Shown here piece by piece: positions 8,528-25,863 of a stretch of DNA of 32,000 bases. The stretch covers positions 1,620,001 through 1,652,000 of the forward strand of contig NC_007517.1 of NCBI RefSeq assembly GCF_000012925.1, given 5' to 3'. The translations under genes were made by a program, and so were the position numbers. Below the pieces are notes generated by a model that did no database searches, had not been told where the DNA came from, and saw nothing but the letters and a program-made list of their open reading frames with translations. Source of the DNA: Geobacter metallireducens GS-15 (GTDB taxonomy: Bacteria; Desulfobacterota; Desulfuromonadia; Geobacterales; Geobacteraceae). The stretch's first letter is position 1, and each line of letters starts with the position of its first letter.

Positions 8528-8542
8528 CAACGGGAGAAGGAT

Positions 8543-11500
8543 ATGAGCAGGAAACATTCAATCGAAACCAGATCCATCGCCCTCTTCATGGCGACGACCA
8601 CCGCGCTGTCGCCGGTGCTGGCCAGCGCCCAGGGAGTGCCCCGCGCAGCATCGCAGACAACCGGTGTCCCCCGGGCCGCAGCCGTCCAGAGTTCGGGTAT
8701 CCCCCGGGTCCTGTCCAATCTCATTCCCCCCACGGCCACGACTCTGCCGCAACTCAAGCCTGGCGGGGTTCTGGCCAATGCCGCGGTCGACACAACCGGC
8801 AATCTCCTTACCGTGAACCAGAGCGCCGACAAGGCGGTCATCGACTGGAACTCCTTCAACGTCGGCCGGGACGCCACGGTCCGGTTCAACCAGAACAAGG
8901 AGTGGTCGGCCCTTAACCGGATCTGGGATGCCAACCCGAGCCAGATCTTCGGAACCGTCAAGGCCGACGGGAAGATCTACCTCATCAACCGCAACGGGAT
9001 TCTCTTTGGCAAGGATGCGCGGGTGAACGTCAACTCCATCGTTGCATCGTCGCTCCACATCACAAGGGAGAACTTCGATAAAAGCCTCCTGAAATTCAGC
9101 AATCAGCAGGGGACTCCGGATGCCCCTGATGTGGCCATGCAGACCTACACGGCCGGTGCCGTGGCCAACGACGGTCAGATAACCACTGAAAAGCAGGGTG
9201 CCGCGATCCTCATGGGCTCCCAGGCTGAGAACCGCGGGGAGGTCGTTTCGCCTGAGGGTCAAATCGGCCTCGCGGCCGGCGATGAGGTGGAGCTTGCCCC
9301 CGACGAGAGTGGCAAGCGGCGGTATCTCGTGAAGGTTACTGCCAATCCGGGTGTTGCCGTGAACCGGGCCGAGGGGACCATGACGGCCGACTCCGGCGTC
9401 ATCGGCATGTATGGCCGTCAGGTCGTTCAGGACGGCACTGCACGGGCCGTTTCCGCCATCAAGAAGAATGGCGTCATCGAACTTCTGGCCACCGACTCAA
9501 TCTCGTTGGGAAAGGGGAGCAGAACGGAAAGCCCCGTTTCCGCTTCCTCTGAAACGGCCCATGAATCCTTCGAGTTCAAGGGGGGCGACATCCAGCTCAA
9601 GGGTCTCATGCCGGTGGTGGATACGGCGCCGGACGGCCCGCGCGTGCCGGTGAAGCGGATCGACATTGAGGGAACGGTTTCGGCCCCGTCGGGGAGCGTG
9701 GTTCTCGAAGCCGATGAGCGGGTTTATCTGTCAAATGGCGCCAGGGTTGACGTGAGCGGGACCGAGGTCAATCTCGCGGCCGACGCGAACCGGATCGAAT
9801 TCACCTACACCTCCGAGATCCTGAAGGACGAGTTCACCCAGAAGAGTGGTTTCCTCAAGGGGAAGACCGTCTCCATCGACGCCCATCAGGGGGCGAGCAT
9901 CGGTGATGTTTCCGGCGAACTGGGAAAGCGGGAGAAGACGGCCCTTGAACGAGGCGTGACCGGTGGCGATATCGCGATATCGGCCCGTTCGGGTGATGTC
10001 ATTGTCCGGAATGGGGCGGAGTTGAACTTTTCCGGCGGCAAGACCAACTACGCTGAAGGGAGCTACACCACCACCCGGCTTACCTCCCAGGGGAAGGAAT
10101 ACGACATTGCCACGGCTCCCCGGGAACTGGTTTACGATGGCCAGATCACCAAGGAGTCCTTCCATGCTGCCCACTCCGAAGGTGCCGATGCCGGCAGTCT
10201 CGTCATGGTGGCGCCCCGGATGGCGATGGACGGCTCCATGAAGGGTTCGGTCACCCGGGGGGTATTCCAGACGCTGCAGGCCGAGCCGGTGAACGGAACC
10301 GGCAAGCAGTCGGCCAAGGGGCGAAAGCTCCCCCTTGCCGGTACTGCAGAGTTCGGACAGAAGTCCACCAACCAACCCCCCGACGCCGAAGACGCCGTGC
10401 TGGGCGATACGGTTATCGCGGCGAATGTCGCACTGCTTCCGGCGGATTTCACCGACGACAGCGACCTCGCTGCCCAGCGCAGCGCCACCTACCTGCCGGC
10501 AGCTACCATCAATGACTCGGGAATCGGGACGCTGCGAGTCAGCTCCAACACCACCATCAAGACCGACCAGGGAGCAGTTGTCCAGCTCCAGCCCGGCGGG
10601 GAGCTGTCGTTGACGGCCCGTAGCATCGTTCACCAGGGTAACATCGACGTTGCCGGCGGCACGGTGAACCTGGTGACCCAGAACAACGTCACCAATTACG
10701 AAACCCTGGGGGGGGAGGCAAATCCAAAGGCAGCAGCGGTTGCCGATGAAGGGATCACCATTGCCTCGGGAAGCGTGATCAGCACCGCCGGTGATGTGCT
10801 CGACAACGGACCGGCGGTAAGGGTGAAGACTCAGGGAATGGAGGCCGTCAGGACCAACGGGGGGACGGTGAAGATATTCGACCGGACCGCCAAGGGGCAT
10901 GGTGTGGATGTGGCCACCGGTTCAAGCGTTGATGTGAGCGGCGGTCACGTGATCGACACGAAAGGAAAGGTAACCGGGGGCGATGCCGGTTCGGTGTCCA
11001 TCCAGGGGGAGCGGGTCAACCTCGATGGCGATATTGCCGGTTACTCCCTCGTGGGGAAAAAGGGTGGCGGCATCAGCGTCCACGCCGGCGAGGTGGTGGT
11101 TGCCGCTAATCCTTCCGCCATAAGCAACGACGGCACAAAGACCGTCATCGCAGACGACCGGTTTGCCGGCTCCGGCTTCAGTTCCATCGAATACAAGGCC
11201 GAACGGAACCTGACCGTGGCGGAAGGGGCGAACCTTGCCCCCTCGGCTGTGAAGGAATTCACCTCTACCCGTGGTGGCAGCAGAGTGGCCCGCAGCTCGG
11301 TAAGCGACGATCTTGTGGGTCCGTCGAAAGTGAAACTTGCGGCCGGCGCCAACCTGGACCGCAACGATCCGACGGCGGTCCCCAGCGTGGATGACGCCAA
11401 GGTCGTCATCGCGCAAAATGCCACGATCAAGACCCCGTATTCCGGCGAGATTTCCGTGTCGGGACCGGAAGTGGATGTGGCCGGAACCCTCTCGGCAGCG

Positions 11501-14500
11501 GCCGGGAAGATAACCCTGACCGCCAAGTCCCGTTCCGTCATCCTGCGGCCCACGGCCCGCATCCTGGCGCCCGCTTACCTGAAGGCGGACCTGAAGCCGC
11601 TGATGCCCAACCTTCCCCTGGGGCATACGGCTTACGATGCCGGCACCGTACGGGTGGAAGGGGTGAGCCTGAACCTCATGCCTGGCGCCATTATCGACGT
11701 GTCCGGTTCCGCCCCCGCCACCAGCTACGCCAGGACCGGCAGGGGCGCCGTCATCGCCCGGACCGTTGCCGGCGCGCCGGGCGAGGTTCAACTCGTCTAC
11801 TCCGACCCGCTGCAGCCCGAAAATCTCGTTGGTGCCGACTTCCGGTCTGCCGCGTTCCTGCCCGGCCTGCGGGGGGGCTCCTTCTCGCTCCTTTCCCAGA
11901 GCATCGAGCAGGGGCTGTCGCTCCGCGGAGATGAGCTTGCGCGGCTCGCCGCCGCCGGCTTCGATTCGTTCTCATTTACCAGCAAGAAATCCCTCACCTT
12001 TTCGGATGATGTGAACCTGACAGCCGGCAGGAAGATTCTTCTCGACGCGCCGGAGATGATCGGCACCGACGGCCGTTCCGTGGCCCTGCGGGCACCCTGG
12101 CTGGTACTGCGCAATACCCTTGCGGGCGATGACCCCTCCGTGCGGCAGGCGGCGACCGGGAGCGGCATCCTGACCCTGAGCGGCGACTGGCTCGACGTGG
12201 ACGGGGCCGTGACCCTTTCACGCTTCGACGCAGTAAGCGCCGATATCCGCAACGACATCCGCCTTTTCGACCGGACCTATTCCCTGGACGGGACCAACTG
12301 GAAGTGGCACGGCTCCCTTGTGGTGCCGGGTAACCTCTCTCTCAAAGCCGACCGGATCTACCCGGCCATGCACTATCTGGACCCCGCCTATCCGTCGCGG
12401 GGGATGGTGCCGTCGGACTTCGCCGTGAAAGCCGGGCGCGATATCACCATCCTCCCCGCGACGGTCCGCAGCACTCTGCCGGTTCCTTCGGCCGGGGGGG
12501 CGCTCCTCTTTCAGGCCGGAGGCAACATTATCCAGCAGGGGACTCTCGCCGCGCCGGCCGGCACGATCAGACTGGAGGCCAATCCCGACACGGGGCGGGT
12601 TTATCTGGGCGCGGGGAGTGTCACCACCGTCAAGGGTGAGGGGATGGTCCCCTTCGGGGAAGTCCACGAACTCTACTGGGAGCTGGTGGACAAGAACAAC
12701 CCGAAACTCCTCGGCAACAAGATAACGGCTGCCCCTGACAAGGAGATAAGCGCCACCGGGAACGAGGTCATCGTCCGCGACGGTGCGGCCCTTGATCTCT
12801 CCGGCGGCGGCACCCTTTACGGTTACCTGTTTCAGCCGGGGCTCGAGGGGAGCAGCGACCCCCTCGGCAAGGCGGGGCGATATGTGATTCTTCCCGACAA
12901 TTCGGTCTCGCTCCCCGGAGACCGGGTCTACCTGGAAGGGAGCGACCTCCTGGCGGCTGGGTACTACACCCTGCTCCCCGTGCAGTATGCATTTCTTCCC
13001 GGAGCACTGGTCGTGACCGACACCGGCAAGGCCATGAACCCCGGCGAACGGACAAAGAGCTGGGACAACCATACCATTGTCGTCGGAAGTGTCAGCAGGG
13101 ATGCTACCTCCCTTGGCACCACGAAACTCACCGGCTTCGAGGTGAGGCAGGCGGCCGACGTGCTCCGGGAGGGGAACTTCACCGTTGCCTCCCTGGAGGC
13201 GGGTGATGCCGGCTCTCTCTCCCTCAAGGGAAACAGCACCGTCGTCGACGGGAACGTCTCGGCCCGTCCCCTTGCGGGCTACCAGGGCGGGACGCTGGAA
13301 CTGAGCGGCAGGAACGTCAACGTCCAGTCGACGCGGGTTCCCCTGCCAGCCGGCTTCGGCGCGGGGAACCCCCTTGAGGCCCTTCCCGACAATCTCCGGG
13401 ACCGCCTCTTCGTGACTGCGGACTTCCTGAATGGCGGGTTCAGCCGTGTGACGCTCGGTGACACCACCAAGGCCGACACCGTTACGGTCGAGAGTGGCAG
13501 CTCCATCGCCGCCGGCGGCATTACCCTGGCCGCGAAGAACTCCGTCATCCTCGGCGAGGATGTGAATCTCTCTGCAACGAAAAGTGCCGGAGACGGTGTC
13601 GTCGCCATTGTCACGCCCACCGGCGATGCGGTTCTCGGTGCCGGCTCAACGGTCAAGGGCGAGGCAGGGGTGACACTCGATGCCCGTACCCTGGAGCTTC
13701 AGGAAACCGACGCCAAGAAGCAGGCCGGAATCGATGCCCGGGGAGGAACGCTTACCCTGGCCTCCGATACCATCCGGTTCACCGAGGGTGATGCAGTGCC
13801 AGCGGAAAAGGGATTCCATGTTACAGAGAAGCTCTGGTCGGCCTTTGGCACCGCCGATTCCGGTGCCGGCAAAGCCCCGGAAGAAATCGTCATCAAAGGG
13901 CGGTCGGCGGTTGCCTTCACCGGCAGCCGCACCCTGAATGCAGCCGGTGACATGGTTATCGATACGCCGAGGATCACCGCTTCAGGAGGGGAGGGAAGCG
14001 CCCCCACAATAACGGCCTCGGCCCGGAATCTGACGTTGCGCAACACCGGCAGCCAGTCGACGGATGCCTCGCTTGCGGATACCGCGTCCCTCACCATGGC
14101 GGCCGACACGATCACGGTGGATGGGGCACGCTACGATGCAGCAGCCAAGAAGGTGACCGGCGGTGACCTCCGTTTCGACGGCATGGCCTCGGTGAAGTTT
14201 GAGAGCAAAGGCGATGTGACGTTCCGGGGCAAGGGGAGCCTGGCCACGGATGGTGACCTTACCCTCTCTGCCGGTCGAGTGGCGACCGCCTACCAGAGGG
14301 ACGGGATGACGCCATACATTCCCGCCGATTTCGCGGTAAAGGGTGGTGGTGCGGTAACCGTCGCCAAGGGTGAAAGATCGGTGGAGAGCCCGGCTTCGCC
14401 TCCCCCGGGAGGCTCCCTTGCCATCGAAGGGAGGTCGGTGAGCCAAAGCGGCACTATTGATGTTGCCGGCGGTCGCCTTGCCATTACCGCCACCGGCGCG

Positions 14501-17500
14501 GGAGACACTGACGGCATCAGGCTGGAGAATGGTGCGAAGATTCTGGCACGGGGAACCGCTGACGTTGCCGGCGGCATGGTGGCCCTGAAGGCCGATGCGA
14601 AAGATGTGCGGATTGAGAGTGGCGCGCTGGTCGACGTTTCCGCCGGTGCCCAAGGGGATGCGGGGAGCGTATCCCTGACGGCGGAGAAGGGGCAGGTCGT
14701 GCTTGACGGGATCGTCAAGGGCGCGGCCCGGGGCACCGGTCGGGGCGGTTCGCTCGCCATGGACGGTTCGGTTGCCGATTTCGGCACCGTTGTCGACACG
14801 GCAACGACAGGGGGCTTCACCGAAGCGGTCGGTGCCAGAATCCGCACCGGCGACGTGACGGTGGCCTCCGGCAAGACTCTCACAGCCCGTTCCGTGCAGG
14901 TTTCCGCCGACAGCGGCGACGTAACGGTGAACGGCACCGTGGACGCCTCCCATGCCACGGGTGGCGGGCGGGTGGAGCTTTTCGCCGGCAGGAACGTGAC
15001 AGTGGCTTCCGGAGGCTCGGTAACGGCGAAGGGGACCGGCACGGGCGCGTCGGGTGGTGACGTGACTCTCGGCAGCGCCGCCAGGAGCACCACGGAGATT
15101 GCCGCCGGCACCGTGCCCGGAAAGGTGATCGTCGCATCAGGCGCTACGGTGGACGTCTCCGGCAACGGCGGCCAGGGGGGGACGGTTCTTCTGCGAGGCC
15201 AGTACGACGCCGCAAAACGTGACGTGAACATCGATGTCGGCGGGCAGGTGAGGGGGGCGCGGGAGATCGTCGCCGCCGGTGTTGCCGTGAAGGAATATAC
15301 CGGCGACAAACAGGTGATGGCCACCGACACCACCTCGTGGAAGACCGAGGCCGACAGGGTGATGGCCAATGCCGCCGCCATCCGCACCCGCCTCGCCGGC
15401 GCCATGGACAACGACGCCAAATCTGTCTTTCAGTACCGCCCCGATGTGGAGGTCCGAAGCACCGGCACCATGACCATGAAGAACGACCTGGACCTGACCA
15501 CCTGGCGCTACAACGGTCAGCCTGGCTACCTGACCCTGAAAGCGGAGAAGGATCTGGTTCTCGAAAAGAAGATCGTCGATCACCCGACGGCAAGCCTCAG
15601 ATCGCTTGTCAGTTCCACCGCCGCTCCCTCATGGGGCGTCAGGATGGCGGCGGGCTCTGACCGGGCCGGCGCCAATCCGCTGGCGGTGAAACGGGGGACC
15701 GGTGACCTGAAGTTCACCACCGACGGTTCGCTGGTCTACAGCGAGAGCGGAGCCGTGGATTTTGCTTCGGGCCGGGATACGGTCATCGCCAAGGGGGTGA
15801 AGAGCATCCCCAGCTACATGACCAACTTCAACCTGAAATACAACCTTGCCGCCTACACCGGGAATATCCGGGGGAATGTGGGACGGAACCTTTCCCTTGA
15901 GGGGGGAACGGCCATCCAGTCGGCGGCGGGGAACATCGGCATCGACATTGCCGAGAGCCTGGTCAACAAGGGAGCCATCAGGACCACGGGCGAATACCAG
16001 GGGGCGATCCTGGCTGACGGCACCCAGCCGGGTTTCTTCGATTACTGGAATTTCGGGGAAGGCGGGAATATCGCCATCCGCGCCGGCAAGACGGTCGAGG
16101 GGACCATCGCCAAGGACAAATCCTGGGACAACTCCTACCAGAACACTGACCTGGTCACCCGTGACCTCATCCCCCGTTTCTGGGCCGCCAACTATACCGG
16201 CAGTGCCACCACTCCCCAGACCGAGGGAATTGCCGCCATGGGTGGCGGCGACGTCACCGTGGCCGCTGGCGGCGGCATGACGGGACAGATGGGGACTTTC
16301 GGCAAGGGGAACCTGACGCTCACCAGCGGTGGCGACCTGAAGGGACGCTTCCTCGTGAAGGAGGGTACAGGAAGCCTCACTGCCGCCGGCAACTTCGGCG
16401 CACCGCCGGCCAATGCCGCCAAGCTGACGGACAATCCTCCCGAAACGGTGCTGGAACTCTTCGACGGCAGATTCAACGTTAAGGCCCAGGGTGACGTGGA
16501 ACTGGGGACCGTCAACAATCCCACCGTCAGCAACAAGGCGTTCAGCAAGTGGAACCTCTCCTATGGCGAAAACGCAGCGGTGAGTCTCGGGTCGAGTACC
16601 GGCAACGTCTCCTACTACGGCACCGGCGCTTACACCAACTACGGCAACGACTCGAACCGCCGCAACCTGGAGAAGATTCTCCCCGGCACGGTTGAGATGA
16701 ACGCCGCCGGCGACATCCGTCTCGACAGCGACATGTACCTGGCGCCGTCCCGTACCGGCAATCTCGTCATGAATGCCGGAGGCTCCGTTGACGGTTCCCC
16801 TGTTGACCCCCGCAGCGGCGTCAAGGCCAAGGCTCTCATGTCGGACCAGTCCCCCGACGATTACTACGGCCCGAGCACCGTTAACACCATCGACCGGGTC
16901 AAGACCCTGAGCAACGCCGCCCTCCATGCCGCAGTGCCGGTGCACGGGAACGACAGCACGAAAATTCAGGTTGCTGCCGATGGTGATATCCGGAACCTGG
17001 ATTTCATTCTGCCGAAATCGGCGATGCTGGCCGCCGGCCGCGACATCAGCAACGTCTCCTTCAAGGGGCAAAACCTCCGTGGCAGGGAGACCGACGGGAA
17101 CACCGGCGTGGTCACCTACAGCGGGGACGTTACCGAGATCAGCGCCGGACGCGACATCGTGATGCAGGAGCGCCGCTCGATGAACGGCGCCGACATCAAG
17201 ACCGGCACCGGATTCGATGTGGCCGGACCGGGGGCCTTTGTGGTCCGGGCGGGGCACGATATTGACCTGGGCAACAGCCGTGGCATTCAGGCCAACGGCA
17301 ATGCCGAGAATCCGGCACTGCCCAACAAGGGAGCAGACATCCTGGTAACAGCCGGGTTGACGGCGAACATTCCTCCCGGTGACGAAGACAACTATTTTAC
17401 GTTGCTGAAGTATGCGGCACTCCTTGCCCAGACAAAACTGACGGAGCGGAGCGGCATACTACAGGAGGCTGAAAAAGCATTCCTCGTCGATCCTTACATG

Positions 17501-18442
17501 AACAAGGATGAAATCGTTTCAGATCCCCCCAAATATGCTGTCGGCAAGAAGTACTACGATCTTCTCTGGCAGTTGCGAGATGCCGGCCAGCAGGAGATTG
17601 TTGCCGCTGTCAGGGAGAAGGTCATTGTCCCGTTCACGGGTAACCGCTCCACAGGGGGCGGCGGCAATGTCGACATGGCGTTCTCAGAGATCAGTACGAG
17701 CGCTGGAGGAAATGTTTCGGCGTTTGCCGGCGGTGACTTGAACGTGGGGAGAACGGCAAAATCAAACAATTCCGACAATACCGGCATCTATACCTCCAAT
17801 GGGGGGAACGCGAACATTTTTGCAGTCGGTGATGTGAACGTGAATGAGTCACGCCTCATGACGTTCCGGGGAGGAGATATCACGGTCTGGTCCGATGAGG
17901 GAGACATCAACGCCGGCCGCGGCTCGCGGACCGCCATCAGCGCCAAGCCCCCGCGGATCTCTCCGATAAAAGATGCGGACGGAACTATCACCGGTTACCA
18001 GCTGGTGTTCACCCCACCTGCCCTGGGGAGCGGCATGCGTACCGTAACATACGGTGACGATGCGCCGCCTCCGGGAGGCATTTACGCCATGGCCCCCAAC
18101 GGTGTCTTCGATGCCGGCGAGGCCGGTGTTTCCGGTGGTCGTGTGGCCGTTCTTGCCAATGCCGTTCTGAACGCCGGAAACATCAAATCGCTGACCGGAG
18201 CAATGACAGGAGTTCCTGTCTCGGCCTCCGCCGTCAGCCTCGGCGGTCTGAGCGGCTCAAGCAGCCTCACCGAAAGTACCAAACAGGCGGAAAAAGCCGT
18301 TGGCGGCGCGGATAAGGAAAAATCGAGCCAGTCGCTGATCAAGAAGGATGAAACGTTCGTCACCTCATGGCTCGACGTGAAGGTAATTGGCTTCGATTCG
18401 GAAGATGGCAACGAAAAAGACAAGAAAAAGCAGGAGATGTGA
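8543..18442 (+). CDS. Giant TpsA exoprotein (filamentous-haemagglutinin-family), 3299 aa
   Basis: Signal peptide followed by a TPS secretion domain: NLLTVNQSADKAVIDWNSFNVGRDATVRFNQ, DANPSQIFG (NPNL-type box) and IYLINRNGILFG (NPNGI-type box). Thousands of residues rich in G, S, T, V, D and N follow, typical of a beta-helix. GGAGAAGG lies upstream of the ATG, and the gap to tpsB is 15 nt. I found no Cys on reading the full translation. Confidence 0.95.
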   Translation: MSRKHSIETRSIALFMATTTALSPVLASAQGVPRAASQTTGVPRAAAVQSSGIPRVLSNLIPPTATTLPQLKPGGVLANAAVDTTGNLLTVNQSADKAVIDWNSFNVGRDATVRFNQNKEWSALNRIWDANPSQIFGTVKADGKIYLINRNGILFGKDARVNVNSIVASSLHITRENFDKSLLKFSNQQGTPDAPDVAMQTYTAGAVANDGQITTEKQGAAILMGSQAENRGEVVSPEGQIGLAAGDEVELAPDESGKRRYLVKVTANPGVAVNRAEGTMTADSGVIGMYGRQVVQDGTARAVSAIKKNGVIELLATDSISLGKGSRTESPVSASSETAHESFEFKGGDIQLKGLMPVVDTAPDGPRVPVKRIDIEGTVSAPSGSVVLEADERVYLSNGARVDVSGTEVNLAADANRIEFTYTSEILKDEFTQKSGFLKGKTVSIDAHQGASIGDVSGELGKREKTALERGVTGGDIAISARSGDVIVRNGAELNFSGGKTNYAEGSYTTTRLTSQGKEYDIATAPRELVYDGQITKESFHAAHSEGADAGSLVMVAPRMAMDGSMKGSVTRGVFQTLQAEPVNGTGKQSAKGRKLPLAGTAEFGQKSTNQPPDAEDAVLGDTVIAANVALLPADFTDDSDLAAQRSATYLPAATINDSGIGTLRVSSNTTIKTDQGAVVQLQPGGELSLTARSIVHQGNIDVAGGTVNLVTQNNVTNYETLGGEANPKAAAVADEGITIASGSVISTAGDVLDNGPAVRVKTQGMEAVRTNGGTVKIFDRTAKGHGVDVATGSSVDVSGGHVIDTKGKVTGGDAGSVSIQGERVNLDGDIAGYSLVGKKGGGISVHAGEVVVAANPSAISNDGTKTVIADDRFAGSGFSSIEYKAERNLTVAEGANLAPSAVKEFTSTRGGSRVARSSVSDDLVGPSKVKLAAGANLDRNDPTAVPSVDDAKVVIAQNATIKTPYSGEISVSGPEVDVAGTLSAAAGKITLTAKSRSVILRPTARILAPAYLKADLKPLMPNLPLGHTAYDAGTVRVEGVSLNLMPGAIIDVSGSAPATSYARTGRGAVIARTVAGAPGEVQLVYSDPLQPENLVGADFRSAAFLPGLRGGSFSLLSQSIEQGLSLRGDELARLAAAGFDSFSFTSKKSLTFSDDVNLTAGRKILLDAPEMIGTDGRSVALRAPWLVLRNTLAGDDPSVRQAATGSGILTLSGDWLDVDGAVTLSRFDAVSADIRNDIRLFDRTYSLDGTNWKWHGSLVVPGNLSLKADRIYPAMHYLDPAYPSRGMVPSDFAVKAGRDITILPATVRSTLPVPSAGGALLFQAGGNIIQQGTLAAPAGTIRLEANPDTGRVYLGAGSVTTVKGEGMVPFGEVHELYWELVDKNNPKLLGNKITAAPDKEISATGNEVIVRDGAALDLSGGGTLYGYLFQPGLEGSSDPLGKAGRYVILPDNSVSLPGDRVYLEGSDLLAAGYYTLLPVQYAFLPGALVVTDTGKAMNPGERTKSWDNHTIVVGSVSRDATSLGTTKLTGFEVRQAADVLREGNFTVASLEAGDAGSLSLKGNSTVVDGNVSARPLAGYQGGTLELSGRNVNVQSTRVPLPAGFGAGNPLEALPDNLRDRLFVTADFLNGGFSRVTLGDTTKADTVTVESGSSIAAGGITLAAKNSVILGEDVNLSATKSAGDGVVAIVTPTGDAVLGAGSTVKGEAGVTLDARTLELQETDAKKQAGIDARGGTLTLASDTIRFTEGDAVPAEKGFHVTEKLWSAFGTADSGAGKAPEEIVIKGRSAVAFTGSRTLNAAGDMVIDTPRITASGGEGSAPTITASARNLTLRNTGSQSTDASLADTASLTMAADTITVDGARYDAAAKKVTGGDLRFDGMASVKFESKGDVTFRGKGSLATDGDLTLSAGRVATAYQRDGMTPYIPADFAVKGGGAVTVAKGERSVESPASPPPGGSLAIEGRSVSQSGTIDVAGGRLAITATGAGDTDGIRLENGAKILARGTADVAGGMVALKADAKDVRIESGALVDVSAGAQGDAGSVSLTAEKGQVVLDGIVKGAARGTGRGGSLAMDGSVADFGTVVDTATTGGFTEAVGARIRTGDVTVASGKTLTARSVQVSADSGDVTVNGTVDASHATGGGRVELFAGRNVTVASGGSVTAKGTGTGASGGDVTLGSAARSTTEIAAGTVPGKVIVASGATVDVSGNGGQGGTVLLRGQYDAAKRDVNIDVGGQVRGAREIVAAGVAVKEYTGDKQVMATDTTSWKTEADRVMANAAAIRTRLAGAMDNDAKSVFQYRPDVEVRSTGTMTMKNDLDLTTWRYNGQPGYLTLKAEKDLVLEKKIVDHPTASLRSLVSSTAAPSWGVRMAAGSDRAGANPLAVKRGTGDLKFTTDGSLVYSESGAVDFASGRDTVIAKGVKSIPSYMTNFNLKYNLAAYTGNIRGNVGRNLSLEGGTAIQSAAGNIGIDIAESLVNKGAIRTTGEYQGAILADGTQPGFFDYWNFGEGGNIAIRAGKTVEGTIAKDKSWDNSYQNTDLVTRDLIPRFWAANYTGSATTPQTEGIAAMGGGDVTVAAGGGMTGQMGTFGKGNLTLTSGGDLKGRFLVKEGTGSLTAAGNFGAPPANAAKLTDNPPETVLELFDGRFNVKAQGDVELGTVNNPTVSNKAFSKWNLSYGENAAVSLGSSTGNVSYYGTGAYTNYGNDSNRRNLEKILPGTVEMNAAGDIRLDSDMYLAPSRTGNLVMNAGGSVDGSPVDPRSGVKAKALMSDQSPDDYYGPSTVNTIDRVKTLSNAALHAAVPVHGNDSTKIQVAADGDIRNLDFILPKSAMLAAGRDISNVSFKGQNLRGRETDGNTGVVTYSGDVTEISAGRDIVMQERRSMNGADIKTGTGFDVAGPGAFVVRAGHDIDLGNSRGIQANGNAENPALPNKGADILVTAGLTANIPPGDEDNYFTLLKYAALLAQTKLTERSGILQEAEKAFLVDPYMNKDEIVSDPPKYAVGKKYYDLLWQLRDAGQQEIVAAVREKVIVPFTGNRSTGGGGNVDMAFSEISTSAGGNVSAFAGGDLNVGRTAKSNNSDNTGIYTSNGGNANIFAVGDVNVNESRLMTFRGGDITVWSDEGDINAGRGSRTAISAKPPRISPIKDADGTITGYQLVFTPPALGSGMRTVTYGDDAPPPGGIYAMAPNGVFDAGEAGVSGGRVAVLANAVLNAGNIKSLTGAMTGVPVSASAVSLGGLSGSSSLTESTKQAEKAVGGADKEKSSQSLIKKDETFVTSWLDVKVIGFDSEDGNEKDKKKQEM

Positions 18443-20253
18443 TGAGCACACCTGAACGGAGGAGCATGATGAACAGCAGGATGTTTGGGCGTTTTGCGCG
18501 GGTGACGCTGGCAGCGGCGGCGCTGGTGATGACGGTGGCCGCGGTGCGGGCCGAGGCGTGGTGGGACGAGAAATGGCAGCAGCGGCGCAAGATCACCATC
18601 AATACGACGGCCCAGGGAGCGGAAGTGAAGGAGGCGGTTGCCGATGCGGCGGTGCTGGTCCGGCTCCACACGGGGAACTTCAGCTTCACCACCGCGAAGC
18701 CCGACGGTTCCGACGTCCGCTTCGTGAGCGGCGACGACAAGACACCCCTCAAGTTCCACTTCGAGATGTACGACGCGAAGAAGGAGATCGCCCTTGCCTG
18801 GGTGAAGGTGCCCCAGGTGGCGCCCAACTCGGGCCAGAACACGATCTGGGTGTACTACGGCAACAGTGGGGTCCAGGCGGCCCAGGACGTCGGCGGCACC
18901 TACGATACCCCCCAGGCACTGGTCTACCATTTCAGCGAGACCCAAGGTGCGCCCCAGGATTCCTCTTCGTATAAGAATCACGCGAAGGAGTTTGCCGGCG
19001 GGCTCGGCGCGCCGGCCCTGATCGGCGGCGGCGCAACGTTCAAGGGGGCGGAGCGGATCGTGGTTCCGGCGTCGCCGTCGCTTTCGTTCCCCAAGGGCTT
19101 CTCCTTCTCTGTCTGGGTGAAGCCGGCCCAGCTTCAGGGTGAGGCCCATCTCTTCTCGTGGGGTGACGGCGCCCAGGGCATCGTAGTGGGCCTTGATCAA
19201 AATGGTGCTGCCTTCGCCCGGGTGGGGCAGGCCGCTACGGGCCGGACCCAGCCTCTGGCTTCCCAGAAATGGCACCACCTTGCCGTGGCTGCGGAGCCGG
19301 GCAAGCGTCTGGCGATCTACCTCGACGGCCGCGAGGCCGCATCGTCGGCCATGCCGGCCTCTATGCCCGCGCCGGCGGGCGATGCATCCATCGGCGGCGG
19401 CGCCCAGGGGGGTAACTTCTTTGCCGGCGAGATGGATGAGGTGACCCTGGCCAGTGTGGCCCGCTCGGCCTCGTGGTTTGCCGCCGCTGCCGGAAGCCAG
19501 GGGCAGGAGGGGAAACTGGTGTCGTTGGCCCAGGAAGAGGCAGGGGGCAAGGGAGAGGCCGATCTCACCATCCATCTGATGAAGGTCATTGCCAAGAGCA
19601 TCACCCTGGACGGCTGGGCCATCATTGGCCTCTGTACCTTCATGCTTTTCCTGGCCGCCGGGGTCTTTGTCTATAAATTTCTGGCCCTGCAGAAAATTGT
19701 CAAGGGGAATGAAATGTTCCTCGAGAGCTTTGGCGAGCTTCACGACCCCCTGGCCCTGGAGGACACGGACGATGATCTGAAGCATTCGTCCATGTACCGG
19801 ATCTACCAGGCCGGGAAGATCGAAATCGAGCGGTGGCTCGCCCGCCAGAGCGCGGATAAGGAGATAAGCAGCCTTTCTCCCTCTGCCCTCAATATCTTCC
19901 GGTCGTCCCTCGACAAGGCCAATGTCAAGGAAAAGCAGAACCTCTCCTCCTGGCTCATCGTCATGACGCTCGGCATCTCCGGCGGGCCGTTCTGGGGGCT
20001 GCTCGGCACGGTCTGGGGGGTCATGAACACCTTCGCCAGCCTTGCCGAATCGGGCGAGGCGAACCTCACGGCCATCGCCCCGGGGGTCGCCTCGGCCCTG
20101 GCCTGCACCCTCTTCGGCCTCTTCGTGGCCATTCCCGCGCTCTTTGCCTACAGCTACCTGACCAACCGGATGAAGAACCTGAACGCCGACACCCACGTCT
20201 TTATCGACGAATACGCGGTGAAGGTTGAGGGCGTCTACGGAGAGAGAGCATGA
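18442..20253 (+). CDS. MotA/TolQ/ExbB-family proton channel with an N-terminal periplasmic DUF2341 + LamG (concanavalin-like) extension, 603 aa
   Basis: Track ORF 18367..20253, trimmed to the ATG at 18442. That ATG overlaps the TpsA stop (TGATG) and has GGAG 5-6 nt upstream. Signal peptide FARVTLAAAALVMTVAAVRAEA.
- DUF2341-like: WWDEKWQQRRKITINT...DGSDVRFVSGDDKTPLKFHFEMYD...ALAWVKVPQV...IWVYYGN.
- LamG-like: FSFSVWVKP...WHHLAVAAEPGKRLAIYLDG...FAGEMDEVTLA.
- ExbB core: GGPFWGLLGTVWGVMNTF...IAPGVASALACTLFGLFVAIPALFAYSYL. Confidence 0.85.
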   Translation: MSTPERRSMMNSRMFGRFARVTLAAAALVMTVAAVRAEAWWDEKWQQRRKITINTTAQGAEVKEAVADAAVLVRLHTGNFSFTTAKPDGSDVRFVSGDDKTPLKFHFEMYDAKKEIALAWVKVPQVAPNSGQNTIWVYYGNSGVQAAQDVGGTYDTPQALVYHFSETQGAPQDSSSYKNHAKEFAGGLGAPALIGGGATFKGAERIVVPASPSLSFPKGFSFSVWVKPAQLQGEAHLFSWGDGAQGIVVGLDQNGAAFARVGQAATGRTQPLASQKWHHLAVAAEPGKRLAIYLDGREAASSAMPASMPAPAGDASIGGGAQGGNFFAGEMDEVTLASVARSASWFAAAAGSQGQEGKLVSLAQEEAGGKGEADLTIHLMKVIAKSITLDGWAIIGLCTFMLFLAAGVFVYKFLALQKIVKGNEMFLESFGELHDPLALEDTDDDLKHSSMYRIYQAGKIEIERWLARQSADKEISSLSPSALNIFRSSLDKANVKEKQNLSSWLIVMTLGISGGPFWGLLGTVWGVMNTFASLAESGEANLTAIAPGVASALACTLFGLFVAIPALFAYSYLTNRMKNLNADTHVFIDEYAVKVEGVYGERA

Positions 20254-20657
20254 AAGCGCCTGCCGATGACATGGATGAAACGGTCGAGATAAACGTCGTA
20301 CCGCTCCTGGACCTGGCCTGGAACCTCCTGGTGGTGTTCATGATCGTGGTGACGGCGTCGGTCCAGGGGATCAACGTGAACCTCCCCAAGGCGAGCGCGG
20401 CCGCCGGGAAGATCAAGCCGAGCACCAAGGCGATCACCGTCGCCTCCGAGGGGACCATCTACCTGGACAGCGTGCCGGTGACTTTGGCGGAGCTTGAAAC
20501 CTATTTGCGCCAGGCAAAGGCCAGCGATCCGAACCTGCCGGTGGTGGTGCGCGGCGACGAGAAGGTTGAGTACAAGAGCATCGTGGAGGTGCTCGATCTC
20601 CTCTCCAAGCTGGAAATCAGCCAGTTGGGGCTCGTGACCCAGAAACTGGTGAAGTAG
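20250..20657 (+). CDS. exbD: ExbD/TolR-family biopolymer transport protein (135 aa)
   Basis: ATGA overlap with the preceding gene. INVVPLLDLAWNLLVVFMIV forms the single TM segment. INVNLPKAS...TIYLDSVPVTLAELETYL...PVVVRGDEKVEYKSIVEVLDLL follows the ExbD pattern. Confidence 0.9.
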   Translation: MKAPADDMDETVEINVVPLLDLAWNLLVVFMIVVTASVQGINVNLPKASAAAGKIKPSTKAITVASEGTIYLDSVPVTLAELETYLRQAKASDPNLPVVVRGDEKVEYKSIVEVLDLLSKLEISQLGLVTQKLVK

Positions 20658-20670
20658 CGGAGGAAGACCA

Positions 20671-21399
20671 ATGGCAACGCACAAGAAGAAAAAGCCCCAG
20701 CTGAAGAATTTTTTCGTCCCGGCAGCGGTGGTGCTTGTCATCATCGGCGGCATCGGCTTCGTGGCCAAGGTGATGCTGACCGATACCGGCGCTCCCCGGA
20801 AGAACAAGATCACCACGGTATCACTCGTGAAGCCGCCCGAACAGCCCAAGGAGAAGCCCCCCGAGCCGGAGCCCCCCAAGGAGATGCCAAAACCGCAGCA
20901 GATTGAGACCCCCACCATGGCCCAGCCCGATTCTCCCCAGCAGGCGAGCCAGGCACCGGACGACGGTCCTGCGGCCGGAAGCGATCTGGGGGTCGACGGC
21001 GAGGGGGGGGCTGGCTCCGACGGTTTCGGCCTCGTGGGGAAGAAAGGCGGCCGCGCCATAACCCTCGGCGGCGGGGGAGGCGGCGGAGGCGGCATGAACC
21101 GGTTGTCGCTCCTTGCCAGGTACGGCTGGTACACGAAAAAGGTGCAGGACGAGATCCGGGGCAAGGTGAAGTCGCTTCTGAACGACAACGGCGGTTTTCC
21201 CAAGGGGAAACTCCAGGCCGTGGTCAAGCTGACGCTCGATGCGAGGGGGGTGGTGGTGGATCATCGCATTGTCGGATCATCGGGCGATACCCGCATGGAT
21301 GAGGCGGTGCGCAAGTCCCTCGGCTTGATCCGGATCAGCGAGGCCCCCCCTGCGGATATGCCCCGGACCATGACCATCAAGATATCGTCCCTGGGATAG
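20671..21399 (+). CDS. tonB: TonB-like energy-transducer protein (242 aa)
   Basis: N-terminal TM anchor FFVPAAVVLVIIGGIGFV. Pro/Glu/Lys-rich spacer PPEQPKEKPPEPEPPKEMPKPQQ. A run of nine Gly. The C-terminal domain KLQAVVKLTLDARGVVVDHRIVGSSGDTRMDEAVRKSL...PPADMP has TonB-C topology. GGAGGAAG lies upstream of the ATG. Confidence 0.75.
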   Translation: MATHKKKKPQLKNFFVPAAVVLVIIGGIGFVAKVMLTDTGAPRKNKITTVSLVKPPEQPKEKPPEPEPPKEMPKPQQIETPTMAQPDSPQQASQAPDDGPAAGSDLGVDGEGGAGSDGFGLVGKKGGRAITLGGGGGGGGGMNRLSLLARYGWYTKKVQDEIRGKVKSLLNDNGGFPKGKLQAVVKLTLDARGVVVDHRIVGSSGDTRMDEAVRKSLGLIRISEAPPADMPRTMTIKISSLG

Positions 21400-21444
21400 G
21401 GACAACTCACTTATTTCTATTGAACAATGAACGGAGGCTTTGTA

Positions 21445-23412
21445 ATGAAACGTACCATCACCCGCCTGACCAGCGCGGCAGCACTCGTCACCCTCATGGC
21501 CGCCGCGCCGGCCCTCGCGGTGGAGACGTCGCCCGTTGCCGCCAAAATGGCCGGGATCGGCGAGCTTATAAAGCTCCTCAGGGAGAAGGGGGTCATTTCG
21601 GAAGAGGAGGCCGGCACCCTTGAGCGGCGCATTGCCGGCGAGGAGAAAAAACAGCCCGTAACCCCGCCTGAACTAGCCGTAACGGCCGATGCCGGTGCGG
21701 CGGAACAGGTGAAGCTGACCTTCGGGGAAGCCTCCGACCTGATCGGCGCCATGAACGACCAGGGGATCATCAGCACCGAGGAAAGCCTGGCTCTCAAGGA
21801 ACGGCTCTATGAAATCCGGAAGGAGGCCAAGGGGAAGCTGGATTCCCCGGTGCCGGCAATGGAACGGAAAGAGACCGCTGATATCTTCGCGGGAACCGCC
21901 ATCGAGTACCGACGCTCCACCAAATCGGAGCAAGAGGTGGCGGAAATGGTCGCCGCAGCCCGCGGAATCGGCCTCGTGAGCAGGGAAGAGTCATCCAGCC
22001 TCATGGCCCGCTACCGGGCGAAGGCAGCCACCGACCAGCTTACCGGCGCCATGATCGACGAAGTCAACAGGGGAGTCGGCGAGAGCATTGACCGGAGGGT
22101 GACCGAGGAGATGACGAAAGTGGACAAGCTGGGCGACAAGTTCGCCAAGCTTCCCGAGTGGCTCAACCGCTTCAAGTTCTCGGGGGATATCCGGCTGCGG
22201 TATCAGGGGGATTATTTTGCCAAGGGGAATACAGGGGAAAACTCTTATCCAAGTCCACTGAAAGCAAATACTTTCTCGCCGCTCACACAGGGGAATACGA
22301 TAAATACAACACATGACCGTCAACGTCTTCGCATAAGGGCTCGGCTGGGGGTTAATGCAAAGGTCAATGATCAGGTTGATGCGGTCATAAAGCTGGCCAC
22401 CGGGAACGACAAGGACCCTGTTTCAACCAATGATACCCTTGGTAATAGCTTCAACAAGCACGGTTTTTTATTGGACTTGGCCTTCTTGCAATATAAGCCT
22501 GTATCCGGCCTTACCCTTTGGGGCGGACGAATGCCAAGCCCCTGGTTCTCCACCGATCTGGTCTGGGACCCCGACCTGAATTTTGAGGGGGTTGCTGCTA
22601 CGTATGCTATGCAGTTGAGCGATTCATTTGGTGGCTTCTTGACTGCGGGAGTGTTCCCTCTTCAGGAATTTGAGTATTCCCAGAGAGACTCATGGCTGTA
22701 CGGGGCGCAGGCGGGAGTGGAATTCAAACATGGAGACGACATATCCGCGAAAGTGGGAGTTGCCTATTACCACTATGAAAACATGAAAGGCAAACATAGC
22801 GAAAGTCTCAATCAAGCAATAAATGGTCCTTTTCATGCTGATCTTAGGCAGGCCCAGAAAGGTAATACGGTATTTGATCAAAATATGAATTTCCCGACTT
22901 ATTATGATGATAAAGGGAATCTTCAACTTACAAATTATGTTCCTGCTCTGGCCTCGAACTTTAAGGAACTCAACGTCACTGCCGCCGTCGATTTCGGCTT
23001 CTGGGACCCGATTCATTTCGTGTTCATGGGCGATTATGTGAAGAACCTCGGCTTTGACCTGGACGAGGCCCGGAAGCTGACCGGCGATAATCTGGTCAAG
23101 GACGATTCCACCGGATACCAGGTGGGACTTGCGGTGGGCCACCAGACTGTCACGAAACCGTGGGAGTGGAAGAGTTACCTCTTTTACAAGAAACTGGGCG
23201 CCGATGCGGTCTACGACGGGTTCACCGATTCTGACTTCCACTTGGGCGGCACCAACGCAAAAGGGTGGATTCTCGGCGGGGATGTGGGGATACTCAAGAA
23301 CTTCTGGCTCTCCACCAAGTGGCTGACCGCCAACCAGATAACCGATACTCGTGACAAGCCCGGCCCCTTTGATGTTGACGTCTTCCAGTTCAACCTCAAT
23401 GGCAAGTTCTAA
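21445..23412 (+). CDS. Outer-membrane beta-barrel (putative porin-like) protein with a helical N-terminal extension (655 aa)
   Basis: Track ORF 21427..23412, trimmed to the ATG at 21445 (GGAGG 7 nt upstream). Signal peptide MKRTITRLTSAAALVTLMAAAPALA. From FKFSGDIRLRYQGDYF onward the sequence shows alternating amphipathic strands, and the C-terminus is FQFNLNGKF (terminal Phe). No Cys. I did not recognise a plug domain. Confidence 0.7.
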   Translation: MKRTITRLTSAAALVTLMAAAPALAVETSPVAAKMAGIGELIKLLREKGVISEEEAGTLERRIAGEEKKQPVTPPELAVTADAGAAEQVKLTFGEASDLIGAMNDQGIISTEESLALKERLYEIRKEAKGKLDSPVPAMERKETADIFAGTAIEYRRSTKSEQEVAEMVAAARGIGLVSREESSSLMARYRAKAATDQLTGAMIDEVNRGVGESIDRRVTEEMTKVDKLGDKFAKLPEWLNRFKFSGDIRLRYQGDYFAKGNTGENSYPSPLKANTFSPLTQGNTINTTHDRQRLRIRARLGVNAKVNDQVDAVIKLATGNDKDPVSTNDTLGNSFNKHGFLLDLAFLQYKPVSGLTLWGGRMPSPWFSTDLVWDPDLNFEGVAATYAMQLSDSFGGFLTAGVFPLQEFEYSQRDSWLYGAQAGVEFKHGDDISAKVGVAYYHYENMKGKHSESLNQAINGPFHADLRQAQKGNTVFDQNMNFPTYYDDKGNLQLTNYVPALASNFKELNVTAAVDFGFWDPIHFVFMGDYVKNLGFDLDEARKLTGDNLVKDDSTGYQVGLAVGHQTVTKPWEWKSYLFYKKLGADAVYDGFTDSDFHLGGTNAKGWILGGDVGILKNFWLSTKWLTANQITDTRDKPGPFDVDVFQFNLNGKF

Positions 23413-23415
23413 CTC

Positions 23416-24720: not shown

Positions 24721-25670
24721 GCGAGGGATGCGGCATTGCGCTCACCATGCTGATTATCGATGATGACGAGCGGTACGTGGACGCCCTTTTCCGCGACGCC
24801 CGAAGGGCCGGGATACGGCTTCTGCACGCGGGAAGCCTGGAGGAAGGGAAGCTGGTGGTCGAAGGTGTCGATGGGGCCGGCATCTGCGGGGTAATCCTCG
24901 ACGTGGAGTGCTATAAGCGCCGCGACGACGCAACCCCCGATTCCAGCTTCATCATCGCCGCCACCAAGTATTTCACCGAGAAGGCCCCCCATCTCCCGGT
25001 GGTGGCCCTGACCGGCGTTCAGGCGCTCTTCGACCGTTACGTGAAGGATTTTGCCGGCATCTGGCAGGTCTACAAAAAGGGACGCGACGAGTCAGCCATG
25101 TTCGCGCACCTTCGGCAACGGGCGCTGGAGCTTGAGTGGGTGAAAGTTGCCGGGCGTTATCCGGATGTTTTCCGGGTGGTGGATACGTACCTCGGTGCCG
25201 ACACCCGCCAGGCGCTCATGGACTGCCTGTTGACCATGGACGACGGCACTCCTGCCCGCATCCGGGGGAATCTGGCCAACCTGCGGAGCATCCAGGAGAA
25301 GCTCTACATCGTTCTCCACCGCCACCGCCCCGACATGGTGCCGCGCCGGTTCATCTACTACGAGCATGGCGACCAACCCCTCAAGAGCGTGAACGTGGCC
25401 GCCATCCTGGAGCACCTGAAAGGGAACTTCGACATGCGGAGGCAGCAGATTCAGGGGGAGGTATTCCTCCACTACCGCTCTCCCCTCTACCGCTTCTCGG
25501 AGCTGGTCTACCGGGTCTCCTCCGACGGCATCCATGCCATCGACGAAGACAGCGCCGACAAGCCGACCCGCTACACCGTTCAGGCGGTGGCCAATGCCTT
25601 GCTTGAGCTTGTCCTCTGGTTCGGGAGGGTGGCGGGGGAGGGGAGCATTGAATGTACCGGGGTACGTTAA
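24717..25670 (+). CDS. Response-regulator receiver protein with an unrecognised C-terminal output domain (317 aa)
   Basis: ATGA overlap with the kinase gene. The receiver residues occur in order: LIIDDDE (acidic pair), GVILDVE (phospho-Asp candidate), VVALTG (Thr), VYKKG (Lys). Residues from about 135 to 317 match no DNA-binding or enzymatic output domain that I recognise. Confidence 0.75.
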   Translation: MSEGCGIALTMLIIDDDERYVDALFRDARRAGIRLLHAGSLEEGKLVVEGVDGAGICGVILDVECYKRRDDATPDSSFIIAATKYFTEKAPHLPVVALTGVQALFDRYVKDFAGIWQVYKKGRDESAMFAHLRQRALELEWVKVAGRYPDVFRVVDTYLGADTRQALMDCLLTMDDGTPARIRGNLANLRSIQEKLYIVLHRHRPDMVPRRFIYYEHGDQPLKSVNVAAILEHLKGNFDMRRQQIQGEVFLHYRSPLYRFSELVYRVSSDGIHAIDEDSADKPTRYTVQAVANALLELVLWFGRVAGEGSIECTGVR

Positions 25671-25770
25671 TGCGTGACTTGGGGGCCAGGGTGGAGTCGG
25701 CTTTATGGATGTCAGGATGCGGGAAAAGTAGAGAGTTTCACGATACCGGTTGTTTCAGGAGGTGATCGCC

Positions 25771-25863
25771 ATGTACTGTTCCGTGTTTCGCCAGTATGGT
25801 CTCCACGGCAAGTCAAAATCATGCCGGAAGTGCGAAAACTGCCCCCGTCATCTGAAGCCGTGA
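25771..25863 (+). CDS. Candidate small Cys-rich protein (30 aa): MYCSVFRQYGLHGKSKSCRKCENCPRHLKP
   Basis: Below the size cut-off of the track. AGGAGG (25757-25762) lies 8 nt upstream of the ATG. Four Cys, including CxxCxxC. About 100 nt downstream of the response-regulator gene on the same strand. Confidence 0.3.
   Translation: MYCSVFRQYGLHGKSKSCRKCENCPRHLKP

Follow-up and report, generated by a model that had tools for sequence, protein, structure and literature searches.

A headed ExbB in a secretion and motor gene cluster

The window analyzed here is the whole 32,000-nucleotide (nt) stretch of Geobacter metallireducens GS-15 between positions 1,620,001 and 1,652,000 of NC_007517.1, and it contains a same-strand series of genes with very short gaps that runs from 4761 through 25670. 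The gene in question encodes an ExbB/TolQ-like channel subunit bearing a large exported head at its N terminus (hereafter, the headed ExbB). It stands directly behind a gene pair for two-partner secretion (TPS) and ahead of genes for an ExbD-like protein, a TonB-like protein, and an outer-membrane (OM) porin. The core genes, in window coordinates, are as follows.

6860..8527, + strand: tpsB, an Omp85-type TPS transporter (POTRA_2, 1.8e-14; ShlB, 4e-21; Omp85), with orthologues in the same clusters
8543..18442, + strand: giant tpsA, 3299 amino acids (aa) (N-terminal TPS domain, 7.5e-26; C-terminal DUF3739, 2.9e-33; NCBIfam adhes_NPXG, 6e-21)
18469..20253, + strand: exbB/tolQ-like gene with periplasmic head, 594-aa precursor (open reading frame [ORF] and Pfam; start inferred from a conserved Shine-Dalgarno sequence and the signal-peptide length of relatives)
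20250..20657, + strand: exbD/tolR-like B subunit (Pfam ExbD, 1e-25; aspartate in the transmembrane [TM] segment)
20671..21399, + strand: TonB/TolA-like protein (Pfam TonB_2, 3.6e-12; consensus of 73 orthologues)
21427..23412, + strand: Porin_5 outer-membrane protein (Pfam Porin_5, 5e-131; AlphaFold2 model)

Between them, tpsB and tpsA encode the POTRA domain, the Omp85/ShlB barrel, and the N-terminal TPS domain of a two-partner (type Vb) secretion system. The ExbD-like protein keeps the aspartate of its TM segment (VPLLDLAWNLL), and the TonB-like protein consists of an N-terminal TM segment, a Pro/Lys/Glu-rich spacer, a conserved Gly-rich motif, and a C-terminal TonB_2 domain at residues ~150-242 of its own sequence. 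The parts of the headed ExbB are listed below, where aa positions follow a 603-aa numbering that counts from an in-frame ATG at 18442; this numbering is used hereafter unless stated otherwise.

18469..18558, + strand: signal peptide, with a signal-peptidase I site A-x-A/WW (the slash marks cleavage)
18703..18969 (aa 88-176), + strand: DUF2341 domain, the best-conserved part of the head (PF10102, E=1.1e-20, 74.3 bits, cut-off 23.4)
19057..19473 (aa 206-344), + strand: LamG, concanavalin-A-like lectin domain (PF13385 Laminin_G_3, E=6.9e-21, 75.4 bits, cut-off 27.6)
19609..20250, + strand: three-TM channel core, A subunit of a 5:2 motor (TM1 at ~19609-19683)
19885-20184 (aa 482-581), + strand: MotA_ExbB match (PF01618, E=5.3e-26, 91.3 bits, cut-off 22.9)

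An architecture of signal peptide, DUF2341, LamG, and channel had been proposed from the sequence alone, and all three Pfam modules score well above their curated cut-offs. The domain boundaries proposed with it are roughly right, except that Pfam places DUF2341 ~100-150 nt further downstream than the interval 18559-18870 given for that domain. The mature protein begins with WWDEKW from 18559, as part of a conserved AWWD.KW..R N terminus; at the signal-peptidase site A39, W40, W41, W45, and R48 are invariant and A37 is ≥90% conserved among 18 homologues, and conservation of the signal region itself is low (0.44) compared with that of the mature head. Because a signal peptide is present and the N terminus of ExbB/TolQ proteins is periplasmic, the head must lie in the periplasm. 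It is strongly conserved: in the block of residues 30-170 (594-aa numbering), which extends from the mature N terminus through the DUF2341 match, 60 of 141 columns are ≥90% conserved among 87 homologues, and the identity of the head, 32-61%, is nearly equal to that of the channel, 38-68%.

The AlphaFold2 model of the headed ExbB, built with the 87 homologues (mean predicted local distance difference test score, pLDDT, 79.5), shows the signal helix, then a pair of beta-sandwich domains, and, after a short linker, a helical core, in which helices 380-423, 496-528, and 533-590 (594-aa numbering) provide three TMs, the first two being separated by a large cytoplasmic loop. When compared by Foldseek, the channel core matched electron cryomicroscopy chains of TolQ and ExbB with target-normalized TM-scores (TMt) of 0.74-0.84, and the LamG part matched domain 4 of AbnA, the lectin domain of trans-sialidase, and the receptor-binding domain of botulinum neurotoxin, all of which are carbohydrate-binding jelly rolls. 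The motifs GLLGTVWGVMN in TM2 and ALACTLFG in TM3 are invariant in the homologues and align with GLFGTVWGIMN and ALIATAIG of Acinetobacter baumannii TolQ; their threonines are presumably equivalent to T145 and T178 of the Escherichia coli protein. With its profile match, three-TM fold, TM2/TM3 threonines, and an adjacent ExbD that keeps the TM aspartate, the protein belongs to the MotA/TolQ/ExbB family. It reaches neither of the NCBIfam equivalog cut-offs, scoring 113.3 bits against 221 for TolQ (TIGR02796) and 70.9 bits against 206.2 for ExbB (TIGR02797), and its channel core is slightly nearer TolQ than ExbB by both sequence and fold. A weak match to the TafC fimbrial family (E=5e-6) fell far below the cut-off. 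The domain architecture, the export of the head, and the retention of the key motor residues can be stated firmly.

A profile-free search with the head alone against 1.84 billion representatives returned 24,082 proteins with E≤1e-3, of which 1,082 reached E≤1e-30. Matches of ~600 aa with a single copy, 38-50% identical, are ExbB fusions. In proteins of ~900-7,900 aa, the whole ~330-aa head (residues ~1-330) is repeated 3-25 times with 25-32% identity; DUF2341 and Laminin_G_3 alternate in all five multi-copy proteins that were scanned, and some of these proteins also contain FG-GAP, InlB B-repeat, or CarboxypepD_reg domains. The tandem recurrence of the unit in large surface proteins suggests that the head is a binding cassette borrowed from such proteins, although the headed ExbB has one copy, which lies in the periplasm as part of a membrane motor protein and not at the cell surface. 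The sequence-only reading placed DUF2341/LamG combinations in pilus-associated proteins and named MshQ; for pilus or adhesin proteins in general this is broadly borne out by these cassettes and by a paper that assigns DUF2341 to adhesins of the PilY type at the pilus tip (PMC4858521). Tandem DUF2341 plus LamG proteins, of which there are thousands in public data, form a class of giant surface proteins that is very large and mostly unstudied.

In a collection of 5.8 billion proteins, the headed ExbB has at least 633 homologues. All of the 120 best matches listed, which are 574-625 aa long and 50-99% identical, contain DUF2341, Laminin_G_3, and MotA_ExbB, and they are annotated as "DUF2341 domain-containing protein," "biopolymer transport protein ExbB," or "flagellar motor protein MotA." The protein class is therefore catalogued but uncharacterized. 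A study of MotAB evolution notes that Exb/Tol-like A subunits of its "generic ion transporter" group, which resemble the headed ExbB, can have DUF2341 appended at the N terminus, with a function that it flags as unknown; its passages on this appendage differ from the present account in giving no genomic context, function, TPS linkage, Porin_5 partner, or TpsA tail (PMC12505986). Besides that study, our literature search found no paper that mentions the headed-ExbB architecture, and searches on DUF3739, Porin_5/PF16930, TPS with ExbB/TonB, and Geobacter hemagglutinin found nothing on this system, whose association of TPS genes with a motor appears to be undescribed.

Linkage of the motor to two-partner secretion genes

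A forward scan of one genome per species yielded 30 full-length or truncated headed loci (L001-L030), from Desulfuromonadaceae, Geobacter, Syntrophobacteraceae, Desulfobulbaceae, Desulfosarcinaceae, Desulfarculaceae, and Nitrospirota and from NC10, Pirellulales, and WOR-3 bins. The proteins of the window were compared with these loci by tblastn, and the 26 loci with readable upstream sequence were taken as informative. A TpsA or TpsB gene lies directly upstream of the headed exbB in 25 of the 26. The upstream TpsA orthologues are full-length, with 27-39% identity over ~3,300 aa, and at the four loci where tpsB is the direct neighbor, tpsA is found further upstream in three, the contig of the fourth (L018) coming to an end. 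At loci where tpsB separates tpsA from exbB, the gap is filled by an extra gene, which in L019 (6267-7895) encodes a 542-aa WG-repeat protein. On the downstream side come genes for ExbD (57-83% identical, in every cluster whose sequence extends that far), the TonB_2 protein, and Porin_5, as far as the sequence goes and with the sole exception of L022. The complete genome of Geobacter pickeringii (CP009788.1, 1,693,063-1,714,865) has the order TpsB-TpsA(DUF3739)-ExbB(head)-ExbD-TonB_2-Porin_5, and the same order is found in an isolate, Desulfobulbus elongatus DSM 2908 (L017). A Porin_5 homologue was also seen in Geotalea uraniireducens Rf4.

Two loci were considered as counter-examples and set aside. 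In L014, which lacks an upstream TPS gene, the exbB ORF (9716-11572) is fused in frame to a CarB-like N terminus and is without its first ~80 residues; this contig of a metagenome-assembled genome is probably a chimeric assembly or has undergone a rearrangement. L022 is uninformative, as only 1.1 kb of upstream sequence is available, with a PstS-like gene there as in L131.

In the reciprocal search, metagenome contigs were searched with independent seeds from the C terminus of TpsA, IDAGEAGI and G[DNS]INAGRGS. A headed ExbB gene is present downstream of tpsA in 63 of the 68 loci with at least 1.5 kb of downstream sequence, and head, channel, ExbD, TonB, and Porin_5 are all present in 39 of the 45 loci with at least 6.5 kb. 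The gene linkage with the TPS pair is thus strict, runs both ways, and spans phyla. A functional link between the headed ExbB and the giant TpsA, which the sequence-only reading had proposed, gains support from both counts, and the survey of neighbors gave the opposite of an architecture always found beside TonB-dependent receptors and never beside TPS genes. No Plug or TonB_dep_Rec domain was detected in the cluster genes scanned in the window and in L006, L019, L022, L031, L038, L161, and L162, and no TolB, OmpA-family, Pal, or CpoB gene was found among the cluster neighbors scanned, where the Porin_5 gene stands instead. Membership in a classical Ton or Tol-Pal system was rejected on these grounds together with the scores under the equivalog cut-offs.

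The same evidence bears on the simplest explanation, namely that the protein is an ordinary ExbB/TolQ paralogue that happens to reside in a TPS operon, with a head that is passive (e.g., a peptidoglycan or glycan anchor) and an adjacency that means nothing. The channel core is indeed typical of TolQ/ExbB, and several Ton paralogues per bacterium are common, but the two-way linkage persists across phyla despite rearranged gene order and gaps of up to several hundred nt, neither equivalog score is reached, receptor and Tol-Pal genes are missing from the scanned cluster genes, and the head is strongly conserved. This explanation is already disfavored, and we consider it very improbable.

Relatives without a head delimit the association. 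Fifty loci (L031-L080), the majority of them Verrucomicrobiota and Nitrospira, matched in the channel part alone and encode ExbBs of 259-268 aa. A TPS pair adjoins the head-less motor in 17 of the 50, which belong to Nitrospira, Verrucomicrobiota, and a small number of other bins; the usual order is TpsB-TpsA(~1,300-1,560 aa)-ExbB-ExbD, and the loci that were checked for a TonB_2 gene have one (e.g., L038, 3401-12028, and L031, 3412-11845). In L073 the TPS pair runs on the other strand. These head-less TPS-linked systems have no Porin_5; that is, the head co-occurs with a long TpsA and Porin_5, and its head-less relatives have neither. In a neighbor-joining tree of the channel domains, the TPS-linked head-less ExbBs are found in one part and two other head-less clades are not TPS-linked, which suggests that certain motor lineages inherit the TPS linkage of their Ton-like motor as a trait.

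The C terminus of TpsA has a feature shared by the motor-linked proteins. In series, it consists of a conserved block, a ~50-aa Ser/Gly/Ala linker, the motif D.F..KWL.V.V..F, and an acidic/Lys tail. In the window the motif is as follows.

18347..18394, + strand: TpsA C-terminal tail motif D.F..SWLDVKVIGF, a candidate beta-strand handle (alignment of 21 orthologues)

In head-less systems from Verrucomicrobiota and relatives, 12 of the 16 TpsA tails read have GRVTVILP, or a sequence close to it, at their end, and 4 of 5 Nitrospira tails end in RGVVIQVDVKP; every such motif follows a low-complexity linker. Judging from the alignments, all motor-linked TpsA proteins end in a linker-tethered beta-strand motif. 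A tethered strand with alternating hydrophobic residues is bound by TonB and TolA, and also by POTRA domains, through beta-augmentation. As the TpsA tail resembles a TonB/TolA-type ligand in this respect, it is the best candidate for a handle on the exoprotein. Because TpsA is conserved over its whole length, it is not a CdiA-type polymorphic toxin.

Porin_5 was modeled by AlphaFold2 (pLDDT 82) as a barrel of ~16 strands without a plug, with helical hairpins and a helix of 55 residues ahead of it. A sequence search of the PDB gave no match for this protein, and only the fold comparison was informative: the best match was the OM-attachment porin OmpM1 (E=2e-18, TMt 0.73), and DcaP was also matched. 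The N-terminal region (21427-22170) contains three helical hairpin repeats, E.LI.LL..KG.IS.EEA, ahead of the 55-residue helix, and orthologues contain 1-3 copies of the repeat, EALI.LL..KG.I..EEA. We take these hairpins to be SHOCT-like. The modeled protein, with its barrel after a long helix, thus resembles two porins whose coiled-coil stalk reaches into the periplasm, OmpM1 (Veillonella parvula) and DcaP (Acinetobacter), and differs from OmpM1 in that 1-3 helical hairpins take the place of the SLH domain. A TonB-box-like motif, [VILMT]4P, was considered as a general feature of the Porin_5 N terminus and rejected: it is enriched, with 14 of 68 orthologues against 3.0±1.7 in shuffled sequences, but is restricted to some lineages and absent in the window.

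Around this core the window contains additional genes.

4761-5570 and 5525-6811, + strand: FKBP-type periplasmic proteins upstream of tpsB, the second fused to thioredoxin (Pfam FKBP_C and thioredoxin)
2864-3601, − strand: PEP-CTERM protein, 245 aa (weak Pfam match)
1498-2802, − strand: PstS-like secreted protein, 434 aa, paired with the PEP-CTERM gene (weak Pfam match)

The FKBP proteins are possible chaperones for the cluster; FKBP and FKBP-thioredoxin homologues are also encoded upstream in L081 and L086, and SurA-like peptidyl-prolyl isomerase genes are found in a Nitrospiraceae bin (L006, 19665-20705) and in G. pickeringii (L162, 16391-17359). Exosortase (EpsH-type) genes occur in or near the clusters of L006 (15810-16868), L083 (3965-4879), and L162 (15132-16136), and the G. 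pickeringii cluster is followed by exosortase, SurA-like isomerase, and sugar-nucleotide genes. The exosortase and sugar-nucleotide neighbors hint at a link to PEP-CTERM and exopolysaccharide systems. By tblastn, the PEP-CTERM/PstS-like pair is in or beside 9-10 other clusters, including those of head-less Nitrospira; the PEP-CTERM gene lies between tonB and the Porin_5 gene in L104 and L117. Behind the Porin_5 gene, 23416-25670 is occupied by two more ORFs, one for a membrane protein of 434 aa that weakly matches HATPase_c and one of 317 aa, with 3-nt and overlapping junctions; because these ORFs are kept only in the close relatives L084 and L085 (49-60% identity), they do not belong to the core.

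The exbB start and the tpsA junction

The reading frame claimed for the headed exbB was confirmed, with its end at 20253. Two in-frame starts compete with the one listed above.

18466 and 18442, + strand: alternative in-frame starts of exbB, the latter giving 603 aa

The sequence-only reading started the gene at 18442, where the ATG shares its A with the tpsA stop codon. This overlap is physically present as TGATG (stop TGA at 18440-18442, in-frame ATG at 18442-18444), but the start is likelier to lie 24-27 nt downstream, where ATGATG (18466, 18469) is preceded by a Shine-Dalgarno sequence of its own, GGAGGAG at 18458-18464. In L001 and L003 the start is likewise preceded by GGAGGAG with a 4-nt spacer, in exact agreement with 18469, and in L001-L004, L007, and L008 the candidate start lies 30-31 residues upstream of the invariant A-x-A/WW site, which corresponds to 18469 or 18466 in the window. 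In L161, an 86% identical relative, the sequence CGGAGGAxCATGATGAACAGC is kept, while the encoded residues differ at four of the five codons from the upstream ATG to this sequence, and the TpsA stop is found within the upstream extension, so that a start there would mean an 11-nt overlap. Annotations of the G. pickeringii orthologue differ, with 593 aa in RefSeq and 600 aa in GenBank. Taken together, these comparisons favor 18469 over 18442 as the real start, although an AGGAG at 18432-18436, 5 nt upstream of the ATG, keeps 18442 among the possible ones.

From the shared A it had been reasoned that ribosomes are handed over from the 9.9-kb tpsA ORF and that this sets a fixed low stoichiometry of ExbB relative to TpsA. 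The TGATG overlap and the AGGAG 5 nt upstream would allow such a hand-over, close relatives share the in-frame ATG 24 nt upstream of ATGATG, and gene callers assign 602-603 aa to the protein in four close relatives. However, it is the downstream Shine-Dalgarno sequence with ATGATG that is conserved, the eight codons upstream of it diverge and the stop codon moves in the 86% identical relative, and signal peptides of 30-31 aa result from the candidate starts of several relatives. Between the upstream stop codon (that of TpsA in most of the loci surveyed, that of TpsB in four) and the mature N terminus lie 88 to 570 nt, and the junctions of relatives often hold several hundred nt of intergenic DNA, so hand-over is no feature of the family. 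Shared-A translational coupling as a family trait was ruled out by this survey and the L161 comparison, and a role in fixing the stoichiometry in the window seems unlikely, while re-initiation in this tightly packed lineage is possible. At the other end of the gene, the exbB stop and the exbD start overlap by 4 nt as ATGA (20250-20253), which is the real tight coupling of the operon. A promoter and terminator scan of 6000-25900 performed no better than with shuffled sequence.

A probable dedicated motor for a giant TpsA

The cluster resembles the ExbB-ExbD-TonB and TolQ-TolR-TolA systems of E. coli in its three-TM core, TM2/TM3 threonine motifs, TM aspartate in the partner subunit, and TonB/TolA-type third gene. 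It differs from them in the ~340-aa exported head with its signal peptide, in the genetic tie to TPS genes, in the lack of receptor, TolB, Pal, and CpoB genes among the cluster genes scanned, and in a TonB-like TM segment without the histidine, His20, of the SHLS motif. The reading we prefer, to which we assign a probability of roughly 0.6, is that the headed ExbB is the A-subunit stator of a Ton/Tol-type motor that belongs to a TPS-based envelope system, and that this motor is dedicated not to classical TonB-dependent receptors but to a system composed of TpsB, a giant DUF3739-containing TpsA, and an OmpM-like stalked Porin_5.

According to this reading, the proton-channel A subunit, the ExbD-like subunit, and the TonB/TolA-like protein would form a 5:2 motor in the inner membrane. 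Because ExbB is a pentamer, five heads would be presented, and these lectin-like DUF2341 plus LamG domains might surround the exit of ExbD as a periplasmic collar that docks the motor to a partner. As the head tracks with Porin_5 and a long TpsA, the partner is most likely the stalk of Porin_5, a periplasmic part of TpsA, or a glycan on it. The TonB-like protein could then pass the proton-motive force to the TPS apparatus, its C-terminal domain gripping the C-terminal beta-strand of TpsA, the part that would be the last to leave the cell, in the way that TonB grips a TonB box, and the force might hold, pull, or release the TpsA fiber. Both the use of the force and the binding partner of the head are what we infer from the cluster.

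Several points weigh against this reading. The evidence for function comes entirely from genomic comparison and structure prediction. Five of the 68 related TpsA genes (L083, L097, L112, L148, and L159) have no motor nearby. The TM segment of the TonB-like protein, FFVPAAVVLVIIGGIGFVAKVML, is without histidine, none is conserved in the 73 orthologues, and the SHLS motif is absent. POTRA domains could equally be what binds the tail of TpsA. In other systems, TPS secretion has been reconstituted without energy (PMC5422565). Finally, the PstS-like and ABC-transporter neighbors suit a role in uptake at least as well: a PstS-like protein is encoded in or beside 10 clusters, once (L131) between tpsA and exbB, and L022 has a PBP_like_2 gene upstream and genes for a substrate-binding protein and for ABC permeases and an ATPase downstream of that for TonB.

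These neighbors would be accounted for if the cluster were a nutrient-capture system of the HxuCBA type, in which TpsA captures a substrate, Porin_5 is a TonB-gated channel, the head binds the substrate or a glycan, and PstS-like and ABC proteins complete the import. The lectin fold of the head is in keeping with this idea, and there is a precedent in HxuA-HxuB-HxuC of Haemophilus influenzae, where a TpsA/TpsB pair is joined to a TonB-dependent transporter and thereby to the Ton pathway (PMC5422565; PMC4873976); this was the only described TPS-Ton operon found in our literature searches. Unlike the present cluster, however, Hxu has a plugged TonB-dependent receptor and relies on housekeeping ExbBD-TonB, whereas here the motor is the cluster's own, Porin_5 is plug-less, and TpsA is ~3,300 aa long with DUF3739 and a C-terminal tail motif. 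Porin_5 is modeled as an open barrel like those of general or attachment porins and unlike those of TonB-dependent transporters, its TonB-box-like motif is confined to the minority of orthologues mentioned above, and the head-less TPS-linked motors have no Porin_5. Nutrient capture would also leave the conserved tail of TpsA unexplained, and we regard it as a rather improbable account of the cluster.

Another possibility is that the motor moves or tensions TpsA at the cell surface for motility, aggregation, or the biofilm matrix, perhaps together with the exosortase/PEP-CTERM and exopolysaccharide systems. In the Agl-Glt system of Myxococcus and the GldLM-SprB system of Bacteroidota, a proton-driven 5:2 motor is coupled via the periplasm to an OM complex and a large adhesin. 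The cluster follows the same motor-to-adhesin logic; its 5:2 motor, giant fiber, TonB-like linker, and OM barrel correspond to the Agl-Glt part list, exosortase, PEP-CTERM, and polysaccharide genes adjoin several clusters, and the head is an adhesin-type cassette. On the other hand, the non-motor parts have no homology to those machines, the adhesin here would be a type Vb substrate, no Glt or Gld homologues were seen in the clusters scanned, and to our knowledge none of the host taxa of the TPS-motor clusters is a known glider. The case would be purely analogical, and a surface-adhesin motor of this kind appears decidedly unlikely.

A bolder reading, which we put forward tentatively as a minority expectation, is that there may be a type Vb subfamily energized by the proton-motive force, in which a dedicated ExbB-ExbD-TonB-like motor would grip a TonB-box-like strand at the periplasmic C terminus of TpsA and would drive, arrest, anchor, or retract a fiber of tens of nm. 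In the giant version of such a system, the pentameric lectin-like head of ExbB and the stalked Porin_5 would constitute a trans-envelope scaffold.

Type V secretion, including the two-partner type, has been described as powered by no energy source, with neither ATP nor an ion gradient required (PMC5422565). The presence of a dedicated TPS-linked motor questions this energy independence for the present type Vb subfamily and suggests that a supposedly energy-free TPS pathway can be wired to a motor. For the question of how a very large TpsA is moved, held, and released, the cluster offers a motor and a candidate handle, and the question is testable in cultured Geobacter and Desulfobulbus strains. 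Three families of unknown function, i.e., DUF2341 on ExbB-like proteins, DUF3739, and Porin_5, also gain a context. If the reading is true, TPS systems would represent a new class of clients for Ton/Tol motors, beyond TonB-dependent receptors and Tol-Pal.

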